The translations under genes and the position numbers were made by a program. Under the pieces are notes generated by a model. That model was given only the letters and a program-made list of their open reading frames with translations. It did not search any database and was not told where the DNA came from. A stretch of DNA of 32,000 bases from an uncultured Planctomycetia bacterium (GTDB taxonomy: Bacteria > Omnitrophota > Gorgyraeia > Duberdicusellales > 4484-171): positions 1 to 32,000 of the forward strand of contig CAZHYN010000013.1 of assembly GCA_964536865.1 (NCBI GenBank). Reading direction: 5' to 3'. Within the stretch, counting starts at the first letter, position 1. Every line of letters begins with the position of its first letter. Below, piece after piece: positions 10,170 through 23,124 of this stretch.

Positions 10170-11927
10170 ATGAAAGAAAAAAAAATCCCGCCTTTTTCTA
10201 AAAAGAAAAGTGCCTTTTCAGAAGTTGCCTCTCTGATTAAAGGTTTTTTTGCTCTTACTTCTAGTACTATTGGAATAGATATAGGAGAAGGGTATATTAA
10301 GATTGTTCAATTCCAGAGGACTCGCAAAGGGTACACTATTAATGATTATAGAATAAGAGCTATCCCTTTTAAGGTGAAGGATAACCAGAGAGAAAAAGAA
10401 AAATTCATAAAAGAGTTCATTGCTGAATTTATCTCTCAATCTAGAATAAAAACTTCTCTAGGGAGAATTGCTATAAGAGGGAGTGGAGTATTCATCTTTT
10501 CCCTCCTTATGCCTTTACTTCCTGAGAAAGACTTACGAGGAGCGATAGGAATAGAGTTAAAGAAAAGATTACCTTACCAGATAGATTTCGCTAACGTTCA
10601 CTTTGACTATGTCATAACCGAACAATTAGTGGGAGAGACTTCTCAAGTCTTTGTTACCTGTGTTGCTGTAGATAATAAGGTTCTGGATAAGTACTTAGAT
10701 TTTTTGAAAGGATTCGGTCTTCGTCCGGAAGTGATAAATACAGACGTTGATGCTTTAGGCAACTTAGTTGAATTCATAGGTGAAGATCAGTATGTGGGAG
10801 TACTCGATATGGGAGCTAGAGATAGCTGTTTAAATTTCTATAAAAAGGGGACTCCTCAGTTTGCTCGAGAAATACCCATAGGGGGAGAACATATTACTGA
10901 AGGAGTTTTAAAAGCAATCGCAAGTTTAGGAGGTAATCCTTCTTTTGAAGACGCAGAAAATTTCAAAAGGCACTGTGGGATTCCTATGCGGGAGGAGGCT
11001 TACATTGATTTCTATACTGATTTTGGGGCATTGAAAGGTAATCAAATAACCACGGCAGTAAGGCCGATACTAGAGAGGTTAATTACAGAGGTATCACGGA
11101 CAGTAAATTTCTATATCCGTGCCTACAAGTTAGAGCAACTAGATACTCTCTACATTACCGGGGGAACATCACGCACCAGGAACATCGATAAGATTCTTTC
11201 CGCTAATTTAAAAAATCTTCCTATTAAGCGAATAGAGAAATTAGAACCTCTAAAGGTAGTGAAGAGTTGGTTTGTTACCGATGTTTTTAGACACGAGTTA
11301 GGGATAGAAGAAGCGGTATCTCATTTAGCAGTGGCTTTTGGACTTTGTCTTCGTAAAGGAGGGAAGATAAACATCATTCCTCCCCGAGAAAAAATGGAAC
11401 AGAAGGCATTATTTTTAATGTTCCTTACTCGCACTGTGTTTCCCTTTATTCTTTTTCTGACTCTAGGCTTCTATGCCTTCTTCTATGGGAAGTATCTTTT
11501 ATATAATATAATTATTGCTCGTCTTCAAGGGCAGGCTCAGAAGATTGCTCCTCTAACTAAGGAGATCGAAAGTTATCTTTCGGTTAAAAAAATATATGAA
11601 GAAAGAGAATCTCTTTTAAAAAAGGCTATAGGAGAACAGCCGTTGTGGTGGGGAATATTAAAAGAGTTAAGTAATATTACTCCTAAGGAGATTGTTCTGC
11701 ATAGTTTAGAAATAAAACCTGTCCTTCCTTCTTCTAATAGGATTCTTACTCTTACAGGAGAAGCTATAGCTAAGGTTACTAATCTTGATCTAGTAATAGC
11801 GGAATTTACTCTGAACCTAAATGAATCTCCCTTTTTTAGAAAGGCTAATTTAGTATCTACTGAGAGGGATGTGTCTTCATCTCTTCCTAGAGCGAAATTT
11901 AAAATAACCTGTGAGCTTGTATATTAA
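10170..11927 (+). CDS. pilM: Fused PilM (actin-like ATPase fold) - PilN protein (GspL-like topology)
   Basis: N-terminal TIGIDIGEGYIKIVQF and the later LDMGARDS / YITGGTSR are PilM/FtsA-like phosphate motifs. After AFGLCLRKGG comes the PilN hallmark INIIPPRE, one TM segment (LFLMFLTRTVFPFILFLTLGFYAFFYG), a coiled segment and a PilN-like periplasmic domain. Confidence 0.8.
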   Translation: MKEKKIPPFSKKKSAFSEVASLIKGFFALTSSTIGIDIGEGYIKIVQFQRTRKGYTINDYRIRAIPFKVKDNQREKEKFIKEFIAEFISQSRIKTSLGRIAIRGSGVFIFSLLMPLLPEKDLRGAIGIELKKRLPYQIDFANVHFDYVITEQLVGETSQVFVTCVAVDNKVLDKYLDFLKGFGLRPEVINTDVDALGNLVEFIGEDQYVGVLDMGARDSCLNFYKKGTPQFAREIPIGGEHITEGVLKAIASLGGNPSFEDAENFKRHCGIPMREEAYIDFYTDFGALKGNQITTAVRPILERLITEVSRTVNFYIRAYKLEQLDTLYITGGTSRTRNIDKILSANLKNLPIKRIEKLEPLKVVKSWFVTDVFRHELGIEEAVSHLAVAFGLCLRKGGKINIIPPREKMEQKALFLMFLTRTVFPFILFLTLGFYAFFYGKYLLYNIIIARLQGQAQKIAPLTKEIESYLSVKKIYEERESLLKKAIGEQPLWWGILKELSNITPKEIVLHSLEIKPVLPSSNRILTLTGEAIAKVTNLDLVIAEFTLNLNESPFFRKANLVSTERDVSSSLPRAKFKITCELVY

Positions 11928-15901: not shown

Positions 15902-16621
15902 ATGAAGAGGAGAACTACTGATTGTTTTTATTTTGTTATTCGTAGGATTATTGAGTTTTTGGTCTTAGGGATGTTTCTTTTGTTGTTATTTGGAATTCTC
16001 TGTGAGAGAGGGGTGTACTGTAAAGAAGATAATGATAGCATGGCGATTGCTAATACCTACTACTTAAAAGGTAAAGAGTTTCTTCTTAAAGGAGAGTATC
16101 AGAAGGCTGACGAAGCTTTTAAGAAAGCGGAGAAGATTTTAAATAAAAAATCTTCTAAAAAAAAGGAAAGGCTCTCTCTAAGAAAGTCGGATTCCAAAAG
16201 AAGGAAGATTTCTTCTAAGATATCACCCTCTAATTTAGAGGCAGAGAGAAGGAAGATAGAGACTATTCTGGAGGCAGCAAAACAAGCTTACTTTGAAGGG
16301 AATTTAGAGTTAGCTTTAAGGCTGTATACCAGAGTGTTAAGAAAGTATCCTACCGATGCTGATCTTTACTACAATTTAGGAGTTATTTATCTAAAAAAAG
16401 CGGATTACCTTAGTGCTGCTGAGGAATTTAAAAGAGCAATTCTTTTAGATCCTAGCGATGCTGATGCTTACTATAATTTAGGAGTGATCTATGAGAATTT
16501 TCTCAATGATAAGGAAAAGGCTATTAGTCACTACCAGAGTTATTTGAAATTGTGCACTTCTGAAGAAGAAAAGAGGGAGATTAAAAGATGGATAGAGAGG
16601 CTTAGAAGGGAAGGACGATGA
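15902..16621 (+). CDS. Membrane-anchored TPR-repeat protein (possible PilF/PilW/Tgl-like secretin pilotin)
   Basis: TPR repeats (ADLYYNLGVIYLKKADYLSAAEEFKRAILLDPSDADAYYNLGVIYENF). Hydrophobic N-terminus with Cys residues but no canonical lipobox. Lies between the secretin block and pilB, with an ATGA overlap onto pilB. Confidence 0.7.
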   Translation: MKRRTTDCFYFVIRRIIEFLVLGMFLLLLFGILCERGVYCKEDNDSMAIANTYYLKGKEFLLKGEYQKADEAFKKAEKILNKKSSKKKERLSLRKSDSKRRKISSKISPSNLEAERRKIETILEAAKQAYFEGNLELALRLYTRVLRKYPTDADLYYNLGVIYLKKADYLSAAEEFKRAILLDPSDADAYYNLGVIYENFLNDKEKAISHYQSYLKLCTSEEEKREIKRWIERLRREGR

Positions 16622-18435
16622 ATGACGAGGAGTTAAAAGATATTCTTTTGCAAGCGAATTTACTCACTCCTCAGGATATTGAGAGGGCAATTGAGGAGAC
16701 TAAAAAGCTTAAGCGCCCTCTAGAACAGGTAATTTTGGATATGCGCCTTTTAGACAGAGAAGTTCTTTACAGAACCATAGCTCAAAAACTAGAAGTAGAG
16801 TATAAAAAAATAGATAATTTAACTGTTCCTAAAGAGCTGTTAAGAATATATCCTGAAGATTTAGCCCGTTCTACTAAGTCTGTACCTTTGTTTATAAAAG
16901 AAGGGACTCTTCATGTTGCTTTAGCTAATCCACAAGATTTTACTTTAACTGATCAGATTCAGTTATTTACCAACTATCCTCTCTTTGTGTATCTCTCTTC
17001 CCCTCAGGAGATTGAAGAAGCTATTAACCGTATTTATCGTGAAGAGAAAGAGGAGATACTTTTTACTGATTTAGAAACACCTCCTACGGTGAGCCCTAAA
17101 AAAGAAGAGGAGAGTAAGCCTTTAAGTGAGACTACCTCTATCATAAAGGTGGTAGATTTACTTATCACTCAAGCAGTAAGAGACAGAGCTAGTGATATTC
17201 ATATTGAGCCAGAGGAAAGTGTTACTAGGATAAGATTTAGAATAGATGGAATTCTTCACGAAGTACCTCCTCCTCCTAAAGAGTGGGAATCAGCTATAAT
17301 TTCTCGGATAAAAGTCTTAGCAGGGATGGATATTGCAGAGTCCCGTTCTCCTCAGGATGGTCATTTTCAGGCCACTATAGATGATAAACTTATTGATTTC
17401 CGTGTTTCTACCTTACCTACTATCCATGGGGAAAATGTAGTATTAAGGCTGTTGGATACTGCTTCCGTAGCTATAGGTTTGGAAAAGTTAGGGTTTACCA
17501 CCCCTCAAGACTTAAAGAAGTATGAAGAGCTAATTACCAAACCTTATGGAATAATTCTTTCTACAGGTCCTACAGGATGTGGTAAGACTACCACTTTATA
17601 CTCTGCTTTAATGAGAATAAATACCATGGATAAAAATATTATTACTTTAGAAGATCCTGTGGAGTATCGTTTAGGTTTAATAAGGCAGGTTCAGGTTAAT
17701 CCTAAAGCAGGAATTACCTTTGCTAATGGTTTGAGAGCAATCCTTCGTCAGGACCCCGATGTAATAATGGTAGGAGAGATAAGAGATTTAGAGACTGCAC
17801 GAATGGCTGTTCAAGCAGCGTTAACAGGACATCTAGTATTTTCTACCCTTCATACTAACGATGCTCCCAGTGCAGTCGCTCGCCTGATAGATATGGGAGT
17901 AGAGGACTTTTTGGTTGCTGCGTCTTTAATAGGAGTTATGGCTCAGAGACTGGTGAGGGTTATCTGTCTTAAGTGCAAAGAAGCGTATAAACCCTCACCT
18001 ACCATACTTAAGAAGTGGCGGATAGAAAAAGAAGATGTGGAAGTTTACCGAGCTGAAGGGTGTCCGGAGTGCAAAGGAACTGGTTACCGAGGTAGAACAG
18101 GAATATTTGAACTAATGGTGGTTGATGATGAAATAAAAGAGATGATTAATCAGGGAGCTTCCACAGTAGCTTTAAGAAAAAAAGCTCAAGAGAAAGGAAT
18201 GCGTCTTCTTTGGGAAGATGGGAGAGAAAAAGTTTTGAGAGGGATCACTACCTTTGAGGAAGTAGCTAGGGTTTGTGAGGAACAAATCGAAGTTAAACCT
18301 GCAAAGATAGAAGTAAAGCCTTACTTAGGAAAAGAAATAGAAGTAAAAAGAGCTACTGTTAGAGAGGTGAAAATTGACCCTAAGGCTTTAGAAGAGTACC
18401 GTGCCCGTATTGCTCGCTGGATGAAGAATGAGTAA
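16618..18435 (+). CDS. pilB: Type IV pilus assembly / T2SS ATPase (PilB/GspE family)
   Basis: N-terminal T2SSE_N-like domain. Walker A GPTGCGKTT, Asp box, Walker B DPDVIMVGEIRD, His box. Tetracysteine motif CLKC...CPEC. About 50 extra C-terminal residues. Confidence 0.92.
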   Translation: MNDEELKDILLQANLLTPQDIERAIEETKKLKRPLEQVILDMRLLDREVLYRTIAQKLEVEYKKIDNLTVPKELLRIYPEDLARSTKSVPLFIKEGTLHVALANPQDFTLTDQIQLFTNYPLFVYLSSPQEIEEAINRIYREEKEEILFTDLETPPTVSPKKEEESKPLSETTSIIKVVDLLITQAVRDRASDIHIEPEESVTRIRFRIDGILHEVPPPPKEWESAIISRIKVLAGMDIAESRSPQDGHFQATIDDKLIDFRVSTLPTIHGENVVLRLLDTASVAIGLEKLGFTTPQDLKKYEELITKPYGIILSTGPTGCGKTTTLYSALMRINTMDKNIITLEDPVEYRLGLIRQVQVNPKAGITFANGLRAILRQDPDVIMVGEIRDLETARMAVQAALTGHLVFSTLHTNDAPSAVARLIDMGVEDFLVAASLIGVMAQRLVRVICLKCKEAYKPSPTILKKWRIEKEDVEVYRAEGCPECKGTGYRGRTGIFELMVVDDEIKEMINQGASTVALRKKAQEKGMRLLWEDGREKVLRGITTFEEVARVCEEQIEVKPAKIEVKPYLGKEIEVKRATVREVKIDPKALEEYRARIARWMKNE

Positions 18436-18460: not shown

Positions 18461-19723
18461 ATGGGTATCTATATCTATAAAGCAGTTGATGCCAAAGGTA
18501 AGATAGTAAAGGGAAAGATCGAAGCACCTACAGAGACTGATGTTTCTATCCAATTAGCTAAGCTAGGGTATATTCCTATAAGTATAGGATTTAAGGGAGA
18601 AAAAGCTCCTCCTTTAAGAGAACGGTTATTTAAAAAAAGATTTCGTAGAACTTCTTCTCATGCTTTAGTAGTATTTACTCGGCAATTTGCTACTATGGTG
18701 AAGGCAGCGGTTCCCATTGTTGAGGGGTTAAAGGTACTGGCTGAGCAAGCCGAGGATGATAATTTAAAAGAAGCTCTTTTCAGAGTAATTGAAGATATAG
18801 AGGAGGGAAAGAAGCTATCCGAAGCCTTAACAAAACATCCCGGAGTATTTAGCCAGCTCTACGTTAATACTGTGGTAGCAGGGGAGGTAGGAGGAGTGTT
18901 AGATAAAGTTCTTTTAAGGTTAGCAAATGTTTTAGAGGAAGAACAAGAGATAAAAATGAATATGAAATCTGCACTAAGATACCCTATAATAGTAATGGTA
19001 GCTCTCATTATTGCTGTAATTATTCTCTCTGTAAGAGTGGTACCTACTTTTGCTAAAGTTTATTCTAGGATGAATATAAGCTTACCTCTTCCTACTCGGA
19101 TAATGATTCTTATGAGTAATTTTTTTCTCGGCCCCTGGAGAGACAGTTCTAACTTTTTGTTAAAAATTCTATGGTTTATGATTCTTCTTGGTATAGCTGT
19201 AGGGGCATTTTTATCTTTTAAATTATTCATAACTACTCCTGGAGGAAGACGTTGGTGGGATAATGCTAAATTTAGAATGTATATATTTGGGAAAATCTAT
19301 AAAAAAATAACTATGCTTAGGTTTGCTTCAATGCTCAATGTGCTTTATCAGGCAGGACTTCCCATTCTTAATATTCTGGATGTTGTAAAAATCACTATTG
19401 GGAACGTGGTGTTAGCTAAAGAGTTGGATAATGTAAAAAGGTTTGTAGCTGATGGTAAAGGAATTTCTGGAGGTCTTTTAGGTAGCAAATTATTTCCCCC
19501 ACTAGTTTCTTATATGGTCTCTGTAGGAGAAAAGGCAGGGGCATTATCTACTATGCTTGATTCTCTATGTGAGTACTATTCCTTAGAAGTAAGAACTTCT
19601 CTAAAAAACTTAACCTCTTTGATTGAGCCTATTATGACTTTAGTTTTAGGGGTAGTGATAGGAGGAATGGCTTTAGCGATATTCCTGCCTATGTGGAATT
19701 TGATTTCTATTATCCGAAGATAA
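18461..19723 (+). CDS. pilC: Type IV pilus / T2SS inner-membrane platform protein (PilC/GspF family)
   Basis: 420 aa with two repeated GspF-type cytoplasmic domains (FTRQFATMVKAAVPIVEGL; MLRFASMLNVLYQAGLPILNIL) and three TM segments. Directly follows pilB. Confidence 0.9.
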   Translation: MGIYIYKAVDAKGKIVKGKIEAPTETDVSIQLAKLGYIPISIGFKGEKAPPLRERLFKKRFRRTSSHALVVFTRQFATMVKAAVPIVEGLKVLAEQAEDDNLKEALFRVIEDIEEGKKLSEALTKHPGVFSQLYVNTVVAGEVGGVLDKVLLRLANVLEEEQEIKMNMKSALRYPIIVMVALIIAVIILSVRVVPTFAKVYSRMNISLPLPTRIMILMSNFFLGPWRDSSNFLLKILWFMILLGIAVGAFLSFKLFITTPGGRRWWDNAKFRMYIFGKIYKKITMLRFASMLNVLYQAGLPILNILDVVKITIGNVVLAKELDNVKRFVADGKGISGGLLGSKLFPPLVSYMVSVGEKAGALSTMLDSLCEYYSLEVRTSLKNLTSLIEPIMTLVLGVVIGGMALAIFLPMWNLISIIRR

Positions 19724-20533
19724 GTGATTTTTGGTTTTTTAATAGGAATAGTTATTCTAATAATTTATATTATTATCTCTTCCTGGTGGTGGAGAAGAAA
19801 ATTACATTTTTATGTTAAAAAATCTCGAGAAGAGGAAGCTAGACTCATTCATCTAGAGAAAATGGCCTCTTTAGGAACTTTAGCTGCTGGAGTAGCTCAT
19901 GAGATTAATAATCCTTTGACCTTTCTTCTTACTAATCTAGGACTCCTTTCTCACTATATAAAAGAGGAGAAGAGAGTCAAAGAAGAGTTACAAAAAGAAA
20001 TAAGTGTAATTTTAGATGAGTGTAACGAAGGAGTGAATAGAATAAAGAGGATTGTTCAAGATCTGCTTTCTTTTTCTCACCGCTCACGAGGTAAAAAAGT
20101 TTCTACAAACATCAATGAGTTGCTGGATGTAAGTATAAGAATTCTATGGAATGAGATAAAGTATAAGGTTGATATAGTAAAAAATTATGAAGCAGTAACT
20201 CCTCTTCGGATAGATCCTAATCAACTAAGTCAAGTATTTTTAAATATAATCATCAACGCTACTCATGCAGTAAAGAATAAAGGGACAATTTTTCTTTCTA
20301 CCCAAGAGAATGAGAAGGAATTTATCATTAAGGTTTCTGATACAGGAGAAGGAATTCCTAAAGAAGTTCTTCCCAAGATTTTTGAACCTTTCTTTACTAC
20401 TAAGGGAGGTACGGGTTTAGGACTCTATGTAAGCAAAAATATTGTGGAGAATATGGGGGGTAGGATAGAAGTAGAAACTCAATTGGGAGAGGGTAGTACA
20501 TTCACTATTTTTCTGCCTAAAGTTAAAAAATAA
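19724..20533 (+). CDS. Minimal histidine kinase (one TM, HisKA, HATPase_c; no recognisable sensor domain)
   Basis: H-box GVAHEINNPL, N-box NIIINATHA, G1 DTGEGI, G2 GGTGLGL. The GTG start abuts the pilC stop with no gap. Confidence 0.85.
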   Translation: MIFGFLIGIVILIIYIIISSWWWRRKLHFYVKKSREEEARLIHLEKMASLGTLAAGVAHEINNPLTFLLTNLGLLSHYIKEEKRVKEELQKEISVILDECNEGVNRIKRIVQDLLSFSHRSRGKKVSTNINELLDVSIRILWNEIKYKVDIVKNYEAVTPLRIDPNQLSQVFLNIIINATHAVKNKGTIFLSTQENEKEFIIKVSDTGEGIPKEVLPKIFEPFFTTKGGTGLGLYVSKNIVENMGGRIEVETQLGEGSTFTIFLPKVKK

Positions 20534-20554: not shown

Positions 20555-20908
20555 ATGGGAGTAGAGAAAAGAAAGTATCCTAGGGTTAAGGTTAAGTTTT
20601 CCGTAGAGTATAGGGGGAAGAATGTTTGGCAAAACGCTGAGATTGACAATATCTCCAGAGGGGGGATGTTTATTGTTACGGAGAAGATAGAGCCACCAGG
20701 AACAAATATAGAGCTTATTTTTGAACTAGGAGAAAGTAAGAGGAAGATCCAAGCTCAAGGAGTAGTGGTGTGGACACGTACTCAATCTCAGCACAATCAT
20801 GAAGGTAGGCTTCTCCCTCAGGGTATGGGAGTCCAATTCACCAAAATTTTCCCTGGAGAAGCAGAAAATTTTTTGGCTGATTTAATAGAGAAGTGGAGAG
20901 ATGGATAA
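20555..20908 (+). CDS. Single-domain PilZ protein with intact c-di-GMP-binding motifs
   Basis: RxxxR = RKYPR and (D/N)xSxxG = NISRGG, at the canonical spacing near the N-terminus. 117 aa. Confidence 0.85.
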   Translation: MGVEKRKYPRVKVKFSVEYRGKNVWQNAEIDNISRGGMFIVTEKIEPPGTNIELIFELGESKRKIQAQGVVVWTRTQSQHNHEGRLLPQGMGVQFTKIFPGEAENFLADLIEKWRDG

Positions 20909-21473
20909 ACATACTATTCTCGTTGTAGATGATGAGCCTAATATAGTTTCTTCCCTAAAGAGGGTTCTTGCCTCCGAGGATAGAGAGATTTTATCTGCCT
21001 ATAGTGCTGAAGAGGCTTGGAGGCTTCTTCAAGAGAAGGGAGAAGTAGAGGTAATTATTTGTGATAATAAATTACCGGGAGCCTCTGGCGTAGAATTCCT
21101 TTCCAAAGTAAAAACTGCTCATCCCCACACAGTAAGAATTCTTATTACTGGTTATCCTGATTTGACCAGTGTTGCAGAGGCAATAGATAAGGCAGGCATC
21201 TGGCGGTACCTCTTAAAGCCTGTAGAGATAGAGGAGTTAAAAACTTTAGTAAACCAGGCTTTTGGTTACTATAGGATTTTAAAAGAAAATCAAATTCTTT
21301 TTGATATCGTTTGTCAACAAGCGGAGTGGCTTAAGGTATTAAGAGAAAAGTATCCTGAGATTGTGTCCCGGGAAGTAGAAGAAGGGAAGATAATTGATAT
21401 AGAATGGAGAGAAGCTTCTGACACAGTTAGAAAATTCATAGAAAAGTACTACCTTCACAAAAAAGGAGAATGA
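20901..21473 (+). CDS. Response regulator: receiver domain plus about 70 aa of uncharacterised C-terminal extension (no DNA-binding or enzymatic output recognised)
   Basis: ILVVDDEPNI, phospho-acceptor context IICDNKLPG, ILITGY, YLLKP. Overlaps the PilZ gene by 8 nt and the next gene by 4 nt (ATGA). Confidence 0.85.
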   Translation: MDKHTILVVDDEPNIVSSLKRVLASEDREILSAYSAEEAWRLLQEKGEVEVIICDNKLPGASGVEFLSKVKTAHPHTVRILITGYPDLTSVAEAIDKAGIWRYLLKPVEIEELKTLVNQAFGYYRILKENQILFDIVCQQAEWLKVLREKYPEIVSREVEEGKIIDIEWREASDTVRKFIEKYYLHKKGE

Positions 21474-22282
21474 AAGAGTTAGAAAAAAGATTGGTAAAAG
21501 AAGGATGGGTTACCTCTGCTCAACTTATAAAAGCTAAGGAAGAGCAGAAGAAAAAAAAGAAGAAATCCTTATTCTCTGTTTTAGTAACTTTGGGATATCT
21601 AAGTGAAGAGGATATTTACCTATTCTTTGCTCAGAGTGCTCAGATACCTTTTGTAAGGCCAGGCGATTATCTTTCAGATGAAGAACTTTTTAATCTTTTT
21701 TCCGAAGACTTCTATCGGGAGCATCTTTTTGTTCCTCTCTTTAGAATAGGAAATACTCTTTACATTGGGACTGCTAATCCCCTGGATACAGAGTTTATGG
21801 ATACCTTAAGGAAGCATACTAATTTAGATATCTTTCCTCTATTTGCCTCTCCTTCTTCTATCTTAGAGGCAATAAATCGTGTATTTGGGCCAGAGAAAGT
21901 ATACTTACAGTTAGAGGAGTTAGTTAGTTTCTCTCCTTCATTAAGTATACTACCCTTAGGAAGAGAATCTGAAAGGATAGTGATAAATACACCTGTAGAG
22001 TTTAAAGTTATTGACAAGAGGATAACTTTAGCATCTTCTCAATATCTAAAGGGAACTGCTTTGAATATTTCTCAAAGTGGTAAGGGGGTAGGGATAAGGA
22101 CTTTTCTTTTTCTTCCTTCTGGAGCAAAGATTCTTCTAAAGTTTCCTTCATTCGATCCTAATTGTGAATTAGAAGCAGAGATAACCCACTGCAGAATGGA
22201 ACAAGGTTATTATTTCTTAGGAGTGAAATTTCTCCAAACAAGAAAAGATTTATTAAGATATTTATTGGAAGAAAAAAAATAA
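21470..22282 (+). CDS. T2SSE_N (GspE/PilB/MshE N-terminal domain)-like :: PilZ fusion protein
   Basis: The N-terminus LEKRLVKEGWVTSAQLIKAKEEQKKKKKKSLFSVLVTLGYLSEEDIYLFFAQSAQIPF resembles the N-terminal domain of GspE/PilB/MshE ATPases. The C-terminus carries RxxxR (RESER) and (D/N)xSxxG (NISQSG) PilZ motifs. Confidence 0.7.
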   Translation: MKELEKRLVKEGWVTSAQLIKAKEEQKKKKKKSLFSVLVTLGYLSEEDIYLFFAQSAQIPFVRPGDYLSDEELFNLFSEDFYREHLFVPLFRIGNTLYIGTANPLDTEFMDTLRKHTNLDIFPLFASPSSILEAINRVFGPEKVYLQLEELVSFSPSLSILPLGRESERIVINTPVEFKVIDKRITLASSQYLKGTALNISQSGKGVGIRTFLFLPSGAKILLKFPSFDPNCELEAEITHCRMEQGYYFLGVKFLQTRKDLLRYLLEEKK

Positions 22283-22324: not shown

Positions 22325-22354
22325 TTGACAGAGCAGAATTTTATATGTTATACT
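22325..22354 (+). promoter_or_regulatory. Sigma70-type promoter with extended -10 driving the riboswitch leader
   Basis: TTGACA 22325..22330, an 18-nt spacer containing TG (22346..22347), TATACT 22349..22354. Confidence 0.5.
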
Positions 22355-22404
22355 TAAATTGAAGCTCTTTATATTAAGGATTTATACTTTTATTATACTA
22401 CTCG

Positions 22405-22572
22405 ACAAAGGCAAACTCGTGGTAACACGAGGGCGCAAAGCCGTGCGTCCCGCTCTTTCTAAGACCCAGATTAACAGGGGTTTGAAGTTAAAGTGCATAA
22501 GGGATGCAGAGGCAGGTAAACTGCAGGATTTAACTAGAAATATGAAAAGGGCGGGATAGGCAGGTTGCCGAA
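22405..22572 (+). promoter_or_regulatory. Candidate c-di-GMP-I (GEMM-I) riboswitch aptamer with a roughly 75-nt branched insertion in the second arm
   Basis: AAAGGCAAAC (22407..22416). A 6-bp hairpin CTCGTG-GTAA-CACGAG (22416..22431, GNRA loop). GGCGCAAAGCC (22432..22442). A 10-bp helix CCCGCTCTTT / AAAGGGCGGG (22449..22458 with 22546..22555). Tetraloop-receptor-like TCTAAG (22458..22463) opposite TATGA (22541..22545). The 3' closing segment ATAGGCAGGTTGCC (22556..22569) has TTGCC complementary to GGCAA. G+C is about 50% by hand count over 22401..22570, against AT-rich flanks. Confidence 0.68.
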
Positions 22573-22593
22573 AGTAGTATTTATTTTTTATTT

Positions 22594-22640
22594 AAGCCGA
22601 ACTACTTTAGCCTTTAGGAGAGTAGTTCGGCTTTTTTGTT
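22594..22640 (+). terminator. Intrinsic terminator (probable riboswitch expression platform)
   Basis: Perfect 13-bp stem AAGCCGAACTACT (22594..22606) / AGTAGTTCGGCTT (22621..22633), running into TTTTTTGTT. Confidence 0.8.
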
Positions 22641-22687: not shown

Positions 22688-22711
22688 TAATAAAGAAAGG
22701 AGGTGAGTAAG

Positions 22712-23071
22712 ATGCGCAGAGGTTTTACTCTTATTGAATTAATTATGATTATCGTTATCATTGGTATTTTAGCAGCTATTGCTATCCCTAAATTTATTGA
22801 CTTAAGAACTGATGCCCAAAAGGCTTCTTGTTTTGGTAGTGCTGCAGCAATTCAAACTGCTCTTTCTAACTATTATGCCCGCCAGGCTATAAAAGGAAGC
22901 CCTGGTTTTCCTAGCACCTTACATGATACATCCTTTACTAGTGAGTATTTCACTGAAGCTACTCTTCCTGATCATCCCAAAGGATGGGATTGGGATACCT
23001 ATTATAGCAGTAATACCGGGGCTCTTCATACTGGTAAAGGGGCAGATAGCGGAGCCTGTACAAACTTTTAA
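22712..23071 (+). CDS. pilA: Type IV major pilin (T4a-like prepilin)
   Basis: MRRG-FTLIELIMIIVIIGILAAIAIPKF: short basic leader, G-1, F+1, E+5, G14, P22. Strong SD AAGGAGG 8 nt upstream of ATG 22712. The ORF-track GTG at 22703 lies inside the SD, so it is disfavoured. Confidence 0.9.
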   Translation: MRRGFTLIELIMIIVIIGILAAIAIPKFIDLRTDAQKASCFGSAAAIQTALSNYYARQAIKGSPGFPSTLHDTSFTSEYFTEATLPDHPKGWDWDTYYSSNTGALHTGKGADSGACTNF

Positions 23072-23092: not shown

Positions 23093-23124
23093 ATAAACCC
23101 CGCTTTTTTAAAAGCGGGGTTTAT
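23093..23124. terminator. Hairpin terminator after pilA, possibly bidirectional
   Basis: ATAAACCCCGC (23093..23103), loop TTTTTTAAAA, GCGGGGTTTAT (23114..23124), followed by a T-rich run on the plus strand. The hairpin also encodes the last codons and the stop of the convergent minus-strand gene. Confidence 0.7.

Follow-up and report, generated by a model that had tools for sequence, protein, structure and literature searches.

The stretch of DNA analysed here, called the window throughout, comprises the first 32,000 nucleotides of contig CAZHYN010000013.1 (assembly GCA_964536865.1, forward strand) from an uncultured bacterium of the Omnitrophota, and a Pfam-based reading of its open reading frames (ORFs) shows that it holds an operon for a mannose-sensitive haemagglutinin (MSHA)-like type IV pilus. 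The operon runs from minor pilins through PilM-PilN, PilO, a PilP-like protein, the secretin, a coiled-coil protein, a TPR protein, the ATPase and PilC to a regulatory module, in which PilC is followed by a minimal histidine kinase, a stand-alone PilZ protein, a REC protein, the gene that is the subject of this work and a pilin gene. This gene (21470..22282, plus strand) encodes 270 residues and a stop codon; the start codon shares bases with the stop codon that ends the response-regulator gene before it (ATGA), and an AAGGAG site lies upstream. We confirmed that its product, referred to below as the fusion, is a real, conserved protein that joins an MshEN/T2SSE_N docking-type domain to a canonical PilZ domain. 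MshEN and PilZ are two widespread domains dedicated to the reception of cyclic di-GMP (c-di-GMP). The gene is under purifying selection, with a ratio of nonsynonymous to synonymous substitution rates (dN/dS) of 0.071 against an 89%-identical ortholog.

Both domains had been proposed in an initial annotation made from the sequence, and both score above the Pfam gathering scores that served as our cutoffs: MshEN (PF05157) on residues 58-143 (E=5.5e-21, 74.8 bits, cutoff 23.1) and PilZ (PF07238) on residues 165-265 (E=6.9e-7, 30 bits, cutoff 22.5). The PilB model TIGR02538 also matches, its positions 2-140 aligning with residues 4-143, but the score of 60.8 is below the PilB equivalog level (cutoff 675.65), the Pfam search found no T2SSE ATPase domain (PF00437), and the protein ends after PilZ, so it is not a PilB, GspE or MshE ATPase. 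Neither YcgR nor PilZN gave a Pfam match, even at E<=10, the N-terminal half being MshEN.

The AlphaFold2 model, built from 15 homologs (predicted local distance difference test, pLDDT, 83.9; predicted template modelling score, pTM, 0.78), consists, by DSSP assignment, of a four-helix N-subdomain and an alpha/beta C-subdomain, then residues 142-167, which are disordered, and finally a barrel of six strands that carries a C-terminal helix. On the plus strand these correspond to MshEN_N (residues 1-57; 21470..21640), MshEN_C (residues 58-143; 21641..21898), an interdomain linker with pLDDT below 50 that runs into the RxxxR motif of PilZ (residues 142-167; 21893..21970), and the PilZ beta-barrel domain, as delimited by PF07238, the modelled strands and Foldseek (residues 165-265; 21962..22264). 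The linker, about 25 residues long in the window protein, was disordered in the model of a 30%-identical ortholog too. For the N-terminal half, the top Foldseek match was the N-domain of Vibrio cholerae MshE with c-di-GMP (5HTL; template modelling score 0.73, target-normalised), and the next were the GSPII domains of PilF, XpsE-N (2D28) and the Xanthomonas citri PilB N-domain from the PilB-PilZ complex (7LKO/7LKM). The C-terminal half matched the c-di-GMP-bound PilZ domains of BcsA, MotI, PP4397 and Alg44, and also the PA PilZ structures.

The two halves differ in the state of their c-di-GMP sites. The strict MshEN motif consists of two tandem 24-residue copies of RLGxx(L/V/I)(L/V/I)xxG(L/V/I)(L/V/I)xxxxLxxxLxxQ, and for database searches a relaxed form has been published, [RKPN]hGxxhhxx[GAS]hhxxxxhxxxhxx[QNKRYWST]. 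In MshE, the guanine forms a bond with the Gly backbone amide and a stack with the Arg; Leu clusters and the terminal Gln make up the rest of the site (PMC5013675). The MshEN_N subdomain of the fusion carries degenerate 24-residue motifs at residues 3-26 and 33-56 with a poly-Lys spacer at 27-32. Alignment to Geobacter PilB sets the register, in which L4-E5 takes the place of L-G in the first RLG and S33-L34-F35 that of the second R-L-G. The details listed by the initial annotation are present as it gave them (segments 3-26 and 33-55, G12, G42, Q26, no leading Arg and K27-K32, as well as RESER at 165-169 and NISQSG at 199-204). Its description of the two segments as motif-like holds for the hydrophobic scaffold and the central Gly, but it overlooked that, in addition to both arginines, both RLG glycines are replaced (E5 and F35). 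In MshE numbering, the ligand-contact positions changed are R9 to E, G11 to E, L29 to K, R38 to S, G40 to F and L58 to F, and there is no Gln at Q61, where it is shifted.

These changes are a property of the family. The relaxed motif was matched by none of 41 family members, and the score of the fusion on NF053729 was 34.4 bits (cutoff 38). In a census of 46 family domains, Glu occupies the G11 position in 35, an aromatic residue (W/F/Y) the G40 position in 45 and Ser the R38 position in 41, whereas MshEN domains outside the family mostly have G, G and R at G11, G40 and R38. F52 and F53, at the second Leu-cluster positions, are further family-specific aromatics. The MshE substitutions G11L and G40I leave no c-di-GMP-induced stabilisation (PMC5013675), changes at G11, I19, L29, R38, G40, L54, L58 and Q61 make XpsE a non-binder (PMC5013675), and GSPII-A of Thermus PilF does not bind c-di-GMP despite much milder deviations (PMC12002112, PMC11731258). 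Judged from the residues, the c-di-GMP site of the fusion MshEN is destroyed across the whole family while the helix-bundle scaffold is kept, and because the positions changed include ones whose single substitution abolishes MshE binding, the MshEN half is predicted to be ligand-blind. Any expectation from the initial annotation that this half senses c-di-GMP is thus not supported, given the changed contact positions and the lack of a relaxed motif in all 41 members. The spacer between the degenerate motifs has five basic residues in nearly all relatives and six in the window protein; its six Lys codons (K27-K32) span 21548-21565 (plus strand), and the extra one lies within an A-rich run, aagaaaaaaaagaagaaa, a plausible slippage site.

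The PilZ half has kept its motifs. RxxxR is read as R165-E-S-E-R169 (21962..21976, plus strand) and (D/N)xSxxG as N199-I-S-Q-S-G204 (22064..22081, plus strand); R165 and R169 do not vary among 27 diverse family members, RxxxR is present in 41/41 and the strict (D/N)xSxxG in 34/41. PilZ domains of the Xanthomonas type (type II, non-binding) are defined as having lost the RxxxR loop and as forming an incomplete barrel (bioRxiv 10.1101/814665); the fusion, in which RxxxR is invariant and the barrel complete, does not fit this definition. By its motifs, the PilZ half looks competent for c-di-GMP.

Beyond the former ligand pocket, where the family signature is E5, S33, an aromatic at 35, F52 and F53, the family has a second set of characteristic residues on MshEN_C (D66, Y67, F91, Y/F98 and L124). 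Enrichment was measured on the 46 family domains against 277 other MshEN domains: F91 is found in 37/46 compared with 38/277, and Y/F98 in 43/46, with Y in 11/277 of the others. In the alignment to 7LKO, Y67, F91 and Y98 of the fusion fall on F77, F101 and F108 of X. citri PilB, which are the hydrophobic residues with which that PilB meets PilZ, and PilZ binding is lost in the F101A/F108A double mutant (PMC8389850). The models of the window protein and of the 30%-identical ortholog both reached a pTM of 0.78, which, despite the disordered linker, suggests that the two domains pack in a defined way.

About 15 close relatives of the fusion, and about 35 clusters at 50% identity, were recovered by word-based and exhaustive profile searches; they have 265-295 residues and match end to end. 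The gene is conserved down to 26% identity. All members with a named source belong to Candidatus Omnitrophota, and they are annotated only as "PilZ domain-containing protein". We also looked for this architecture elsewhere; the ten distant profile matches that seemed most suggestive were ATPases or ATPase fragments without PilZ, and independent fusions may exist in other lineages. MshEN-type domains outside the fusion family, as far as the profile search reached, lie in ATPases or fragments of them. Wang et al. 2016 list REC, HD-GYP, CheA, CheX, cyclase and kinase domains as MshEN partners, and PilZ is absent from the lists in their main text and supplement. An MshEN-PilZ protein was likewise not described in the literature we searched, including a survey of PilZ domains (preprint, bioRxiv 10.1101/814665) and a review of PilB cofactors, and the remark in the initial annotation that this fusion is uncharacterised agrees with its going unnamed there. 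As far as can be seen, what is new is the fusion itself, seemingly confined to one uncultured phylum, since both domains and the general logic are already well known.

The position of the gene in the operon is fixed. Among 28 related loci with 19 distinct fusion sequences, about 20 have enough upstream sequence, and in all of these the fusion gene lies downstream of the ATPase and PilC genes, including members at 26-30% identity. Between PilC and the fusion gene, the loci compared have either no gene, the REC gene or the kinase-PilZ-REC group. The pilus context assumed by the initial annotation was borne out, as the operon also encodes a PilM-PilN fusion and a PilB-like ATPase. The former, a GspL-like protein of 585 residues (10170..11927, plus strand; PilM_2 at 35-396, PilN at 496-583), is kept in related loci L007, L013, L017 and L018. 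The latter, the cognate ATPase with MshEN and T2SSE domains by Pfam and degenerate MshEN_N motifs (16618..18435, plus strand), precedes the T2SSF/PilC platform protein, identified by Pfam and synteny (18461..19723, plus strand).

The cognate ATPase has itself lost the tandem motif. Its N-terminus reads E-L-K ... P-L-E with both central Gly lost (16618-17050), its NF053729 score is 30.8 (cutoff 38), and no relaxed motif was found in any of 11 distinct versions of this N-terminus. An unrelated second ATPase in a different, secretin-containing cluster of related loci L010 (from 12326) and L012 (from 19224) has near-perfect tandem motifs, PLGEILIERGLI...Q and RLGEILLKNGLV...Q, separated by the 5-residue spacer KFSTE. 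Taken at the level of sequence, this pattern fits a transfer of the c-di-GMP input to this motor from the ATPase to PilZ proteins. The MshEN of the fusion forms a separate clade, 25% identical to the N-domain of the cognate ATPase and 28% to that of the other ATPase, and E25 is the only lineage-specific residue that fusion and cognate ATPase have in common. A recent duplication of the cognate ATPase N-domain was therefore rejected as its source, given the separate clade and the 25% identity.

Of the genes between PilC and the fusion, the REC protein is the commonest neighbour, adjoining the fusion gene in most loci. This response regulator (20901..21473, plus strand; Response_reg) ends in a helical tail of about 70 residues and is translationally coupled to the fusion gene. 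Its receiver is intact (DD, D55, T83 and K105), and NosR-type REC-HD-GYP phosphodiesterase regulators align with it over their first 151 positions (E=1e-42), but it has no HD-GYP domain. The histidine kinase (19724..20533, plus strand; HisKA and HATPase_c) is minimal and membrane-anchored by one N-terminal hydrophobic helix, has no recognisable sensor domain and accompanies the fusion in a subset of loci; as a speculation, it may sense the state of the membrane or platform as PilS senses pilin. The stand-alone PilZ protein (20555..20908, plus strand; PF07238, E=1.8e-15) has 117 residues with canonical RKYPR and NISRGG motifs, scores 68.4 bits on TIGR02266 (cutoff 68.7) and was found only in loci that also carry the kinase. 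Paralogy of the two PilZ domains of the operon was considered and rejected, as BLASTP found no similarity between them. The window contains no GGDEF, EAL or HD-GYP gene and no FimX-like protein.

The gene that follows the fusion in most loci encodes a major pilin-like protein (22703..23071, plus strand; N_methyl, with matches to TIGR02532 and to PilA/GspG N-termini). Its ORF is listed from a GTG at 22703, and an ATG at 22712 gives the prepilin leader MRRG/FTLIE; the ATG is the likelier start, because this leader is typical and the codon lies at a good distance from the AAAGGAGG site. In the most divergent members, a small MerR-type helix-turn-helix gene stands directly after the fusion (L013 10849-11049 and L014 3180-3371), not a pilin gene and riboswitch. 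Further on, at 23108-26969 on the minus strand, are two paralogs of about 640 residues, about 41% identical, with a multi-pass hydrophobic N-terminal half, for which Pfam gave no match even at E<=1, and TPR repeats in the C-terminal half. They adjoin the pilin gene in L002, L007, L011, L015, L018 and L025 and may be enzymes that modify pilin or act in the envelope.

The gap of 420 bp ahead of the pilin gene contains, in order, a strong promoter-like site (22325-22354; TTGACA-18-TATACT, 11/12 matches, with TG), a c-di-GMP-I-type (GEMM-I) aptamer with a 96-nt insertion in the second hairpin (22401..22573, plus strand), a terminator-like hairpin and the ribosome-binding site of the pilin gene (AAAGGAGG, 22695-22714). 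A listed ORF of 66 codons at 22359-22559 (plus strand) overlaps the aptamer and is almost certainly no gene. The aptamer scores 37.1 bits on RF01051, the standard c-di-GMP-I model (cutoff 35), and 58.7 bits on RF03167, the c-di-GMP-I-GGC model (cutoff 59). Orthologous aptamers of 59-68 bits occupy the same position in three other lineages (L002/L015 10928-11010, L004 6079-6170 and L023 2136-2217). All copies read CGCAAAG, as in the standard class, and the RF03167 consensus is CGCGAAG, so the fact that the GGC model scores best does not fix the ligand. We know of no established ligand for the GGC variant, and the paper that defined it reportedly said that the variant "might recognise different signalling molecules".

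The hairpin, with a 12-bp stem and a U6 run (22595..22638, plus strand; from the sequence and its minimum free energy fold), is the candidate expression platform of this riboswitch, and the same arrangement of hairpin and U-run follows the aptamer in L002 and L004. Leader repeats, ACUACU at 22397 and 22603 and AGUAGU at 22573 and 22621, suggest a competition between P1, anti-terminator and terminator. We tentatively read the platform as OFF-type in the window and in L002, with the four-way design less clear in L004.

We propose that the fusion is a dedicated, c-di-GMP-gated accessory subunit of the MSHA-like type IV pilus machine of Omnitrophota, a reading to which we give a probability of about 0.5. 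Its C-terminal PilZ domain would be the c-di-GMP sensor, with (D/N)xSxxG inside the barrel and RxxxR at the end of a flexible linker as in YcgR, PlzD and MotI, and its N-terminal, ligand-blind MshEN would act as a protein-protein module at the cytoplasmic platform, docking most likely on the PilM-like domain of PilM-PilN, or on the ATPase itself. PilM-PilN is named as the likeliest partner by analogy to the EpsE-EpsL and GspE-GspL complexes (cited in PMC8389850). As the ATPase of the operon has lost its own MshEN site, the fusion would supply c-di-GMP control in trans. In two-domain PilZ effectors, c-di-GMP orders the linker and resets the packing of the barrel on the N-terminal domain, and in the fusion its binding would reset the packing of PilZ on the aromatic patch of MshEN_C, switching engagement with the motor. 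With a weak leaning, we suppose that the c-di-GMP-bound fusion would license ATPase function, as c-di-GMP does for MshE. Other inputs of the c-di-GMP type surround the gene, namely the second canonical PilZ protein and the GEMM-I-type riboswitch on the pilin gene.

Several points weigh against this proposal. The host is uncultured, and what we say of ligand binding, docking partner, conformational switch and direction of control we infer from computational observations, that is, from the reality of the gene, the identities of its domains, the motif states, the operon position, the degeneracy of the ATPase and the two-domain models. The link between the fusion and the degenerate ATPase is effectively one evolutionary event, as both belong to a single clade, and degenerate MshEN domains are common in general, making up about one third of the background set. 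On the side of the sensor, 7/41 family members lack the final Gly of (D/N)xSxxG, the Pfam PilZ score of 30 bits is modest, and the window, as said, encodes no GGDEF, EAL or HD-GYP protein. That PilZ would pack on the MshEN_C aromatic patch is a prediction from the alignment to X. citri PilB, not a reading of model coordinates, and the likeness of this patch to X. citri PilB may be a coincidence, the X. citri PilZ being non-canonical and binding via its C-terminus. Finally, if the ligand of the riboswitch is c-di-GMP, an OFF-type platform would fit inhibition better than licensing.

Inhibition would be the outcome if the fusion were a gated decoy or brake, the competitive role raised in the initial annotation, in which the free MshEN takes the PilM site of the ATPase N1D and c-di-GMP on PilZ exposes or masks the decoy; it would then resemble YcgR and MotI, which brake the flagellar motor. 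The fusion does have the same fold as the ATPase N-domain and is encoded beside the motor genes, and the OFF-type layout on the pilin gene in the window and in L002 would be coherent with inhibition at high ligand; c-di-GMP-bound PilZ adaptors, as is generally known for YcgR and MotI, commonly inhibit motors, and MotI is among the fold matches. Nevertheless, a mimic should share more with its model than does a domain of about 25% identity from a separate old clade with only E25 in common, whose signature residues differ from those of the ATPase (Y67 where the ATPase has L, Y98 for H and I93 for K). Simple mimicry of the ATPase docking surface is weakly disfavoured for these reasons, the MshEN of the fusion being an old paralog with almost no lineage-specific residues in common with the ATPase and with an aromatic patch of its own, and we regard the decoy as unlikely. 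Another explanation is a bridge like that of Xanthomonas, whose PilZ binds PilB residues 12-163 (PMC8389850): the PilZ barrel or the patch would bind the ATPase N-domain in trans while MshEN contacts PilM or the stand-alone PilZ, forming a positive PilB-cofactor complex by which the ATPase would be localised or activated. PilB_N-PilZ complexes exist (PMC8389850) and are among our fold matches (7LKO/7LKM), the cognate ATPase has F at the F101 equivalent in 6/8, and a second PilZ and a response regulator are co-encoded. Yet at the F108 equivalent the ATPase carries H in place of an aromatic, the window holds no FimX-like protein, and the PilZ domain here is canonical and a predicted c-di-GMP binder, unlike the truncated Xanthomonas type, which together make such a bridge rather improbable.

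Two further explanations concern what the MshEN half is for. If both halves were receptors for c-di-GMP or a related dinucleotide, MshEN_N would bind it in a divergent mode, with help from the poly-Lys spacer. In favour of this, the fusion retains the helix-bundle scaffold, both central glycines and Q26, has a strongly basic spacer, and falls just 3.6 bits short of the NF053729 cutoff. Against a second site stand the replacement of the RLG glycines by bulky residues, when G11L and G40I abolish binding in MshE, the changes of R9, R38, L29 and L58 as in the non-binding XpsE, the count of 0/41 for the relaxed motif, and the accumulation of aromatics in the former pocket, while GSPII-A of PilF is non-binding with far fewer changes; we consider this explanation extremely improbable. 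At the other end, the fusion may be a generic PilZ effector in which MshEN is a structural accessory, like PilZN, and whose target lies outside the motor, for example in secretion or pilin modification. Assorted N-terminal domains are found on many PilZ proteins (bioRxiv 10.1101/814665), and conserved TPR membrane proteins and glycosyltransferases are encoded nearby. The strict conservation of the position between PilC and pilin across the family, however, and the otherwise exclusive occurrence of MshEN-type domains in ATPases or their fragments, within reach of the profile search, speak against a generic effector, which we consider very unlikely.

Several known systems come close to the fusion. 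The MshEN of V. cholerae (5HTL) and the c-di-GMP-binding PilBs (Myxococcus xanthus PilB, Clostridium perfringens PilB2 and GSPII-B/C of Thermus thermophilus PilF) are alike with the fusion in their two-subdomain fold and Pfam family, and have in common with it an MSHA-like or type IV pilus operon and control by c-di-GMP at the motor; the fusion differs in having no ATPase domain, in its destroyed tandem motifs and in the predicted move of sensing to the fused PilZ. In the PilB-PilZ(-FimX) systems of X. citri and Pseudomonas aeruginosa (7LKO, 7LKM), a motif-less PilB N-domain (ND0/ND1) is likewise paired with a PilZ-fold protein, whereas the fusion is one polypeptide apart from the ATPase, its PilZ is canonical and the ATPase N-domain is a different paralog. 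YcgR, MotI/DgrA, PlzD/VCA0042, PP4397 and MrkH follow the same plan as the fusion, with an N-terminal domain, an RxxxR linker and a PilZ barrel, and this plan supports domain closure driven by c-di-GMP and motor regulation by protein contact; the fusion's N-terminal domain, in contrast, is MshEN and not YcgR_N or PilZN, and its predicted target is the type IV pilus motor and not the flagellar stator or rotor.

The blind MshEN also has precedents. The XpsE N-domain (2D27/2D28, Xanthomonas campestris) and GSPII-A of PilF (9G1W, T. thermophilus) have kept the fold and lost the c-di-GMP contacts, as in the fusion, whose changed positions overlap those of XpsE at G11, L29, R38, G40, L58 and Q61. 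Those domains, however, are within ATPases, and that of the fusion is detached and joined to PilZ. NfrB, with GT2-MshEN, and the REC-, HD-GYP-, CheA- and kinase-MshEN proteins (Wang et al. 2016) demonstrate that MshEN is portable outside ATPases, as it is here, but in these MshEN is the c-di-GMP sensor, while in the fusion it is predicted to be blind and PilZ to sense.

One wider interpretation, which we put forward tentatively and consider doubtful, is that the fusion could serve as a "Rosetta stone" for an ancient, general MshEN(ND1)-PilZ interface, and for the outsourcing of the sensor by a detached MshEN paralog plugged with aromatics. The plug would consist of W/F/Y35, F52 and F53 together with Glu5, and the protein, by then a separate subunit gated by c-di-GMP, would license or block a motor whose ATPase had lost its built-in pocket, working beside a variant GEMM-I riboswitch and a two-component system. 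Contact between MshEN(ND1) and PilZ is otherwise known only in trans, from Xanthomonas and Pseudomonas.

The fusion also offers a compact, soluble protein of 270 residues for the crosstalk between a PilZ barrel and a PilB-type N-domain, a question that is open even for PilB-PilZ-FimX. The adjacent riboswitch connects a pilin gene with a variant GEMM-I class and may aid in assigning the ligand of the variant. Omnitrophota are ultra-small bacteria whose type IV pili are thought to mediate attachment to a host (PMC10066038), and in this phylum the fusion, with one of its two receptor domains apparently blind, would be a natural case of second-messenger control of the pilus motor moving from the ATPase to a separate subunit.

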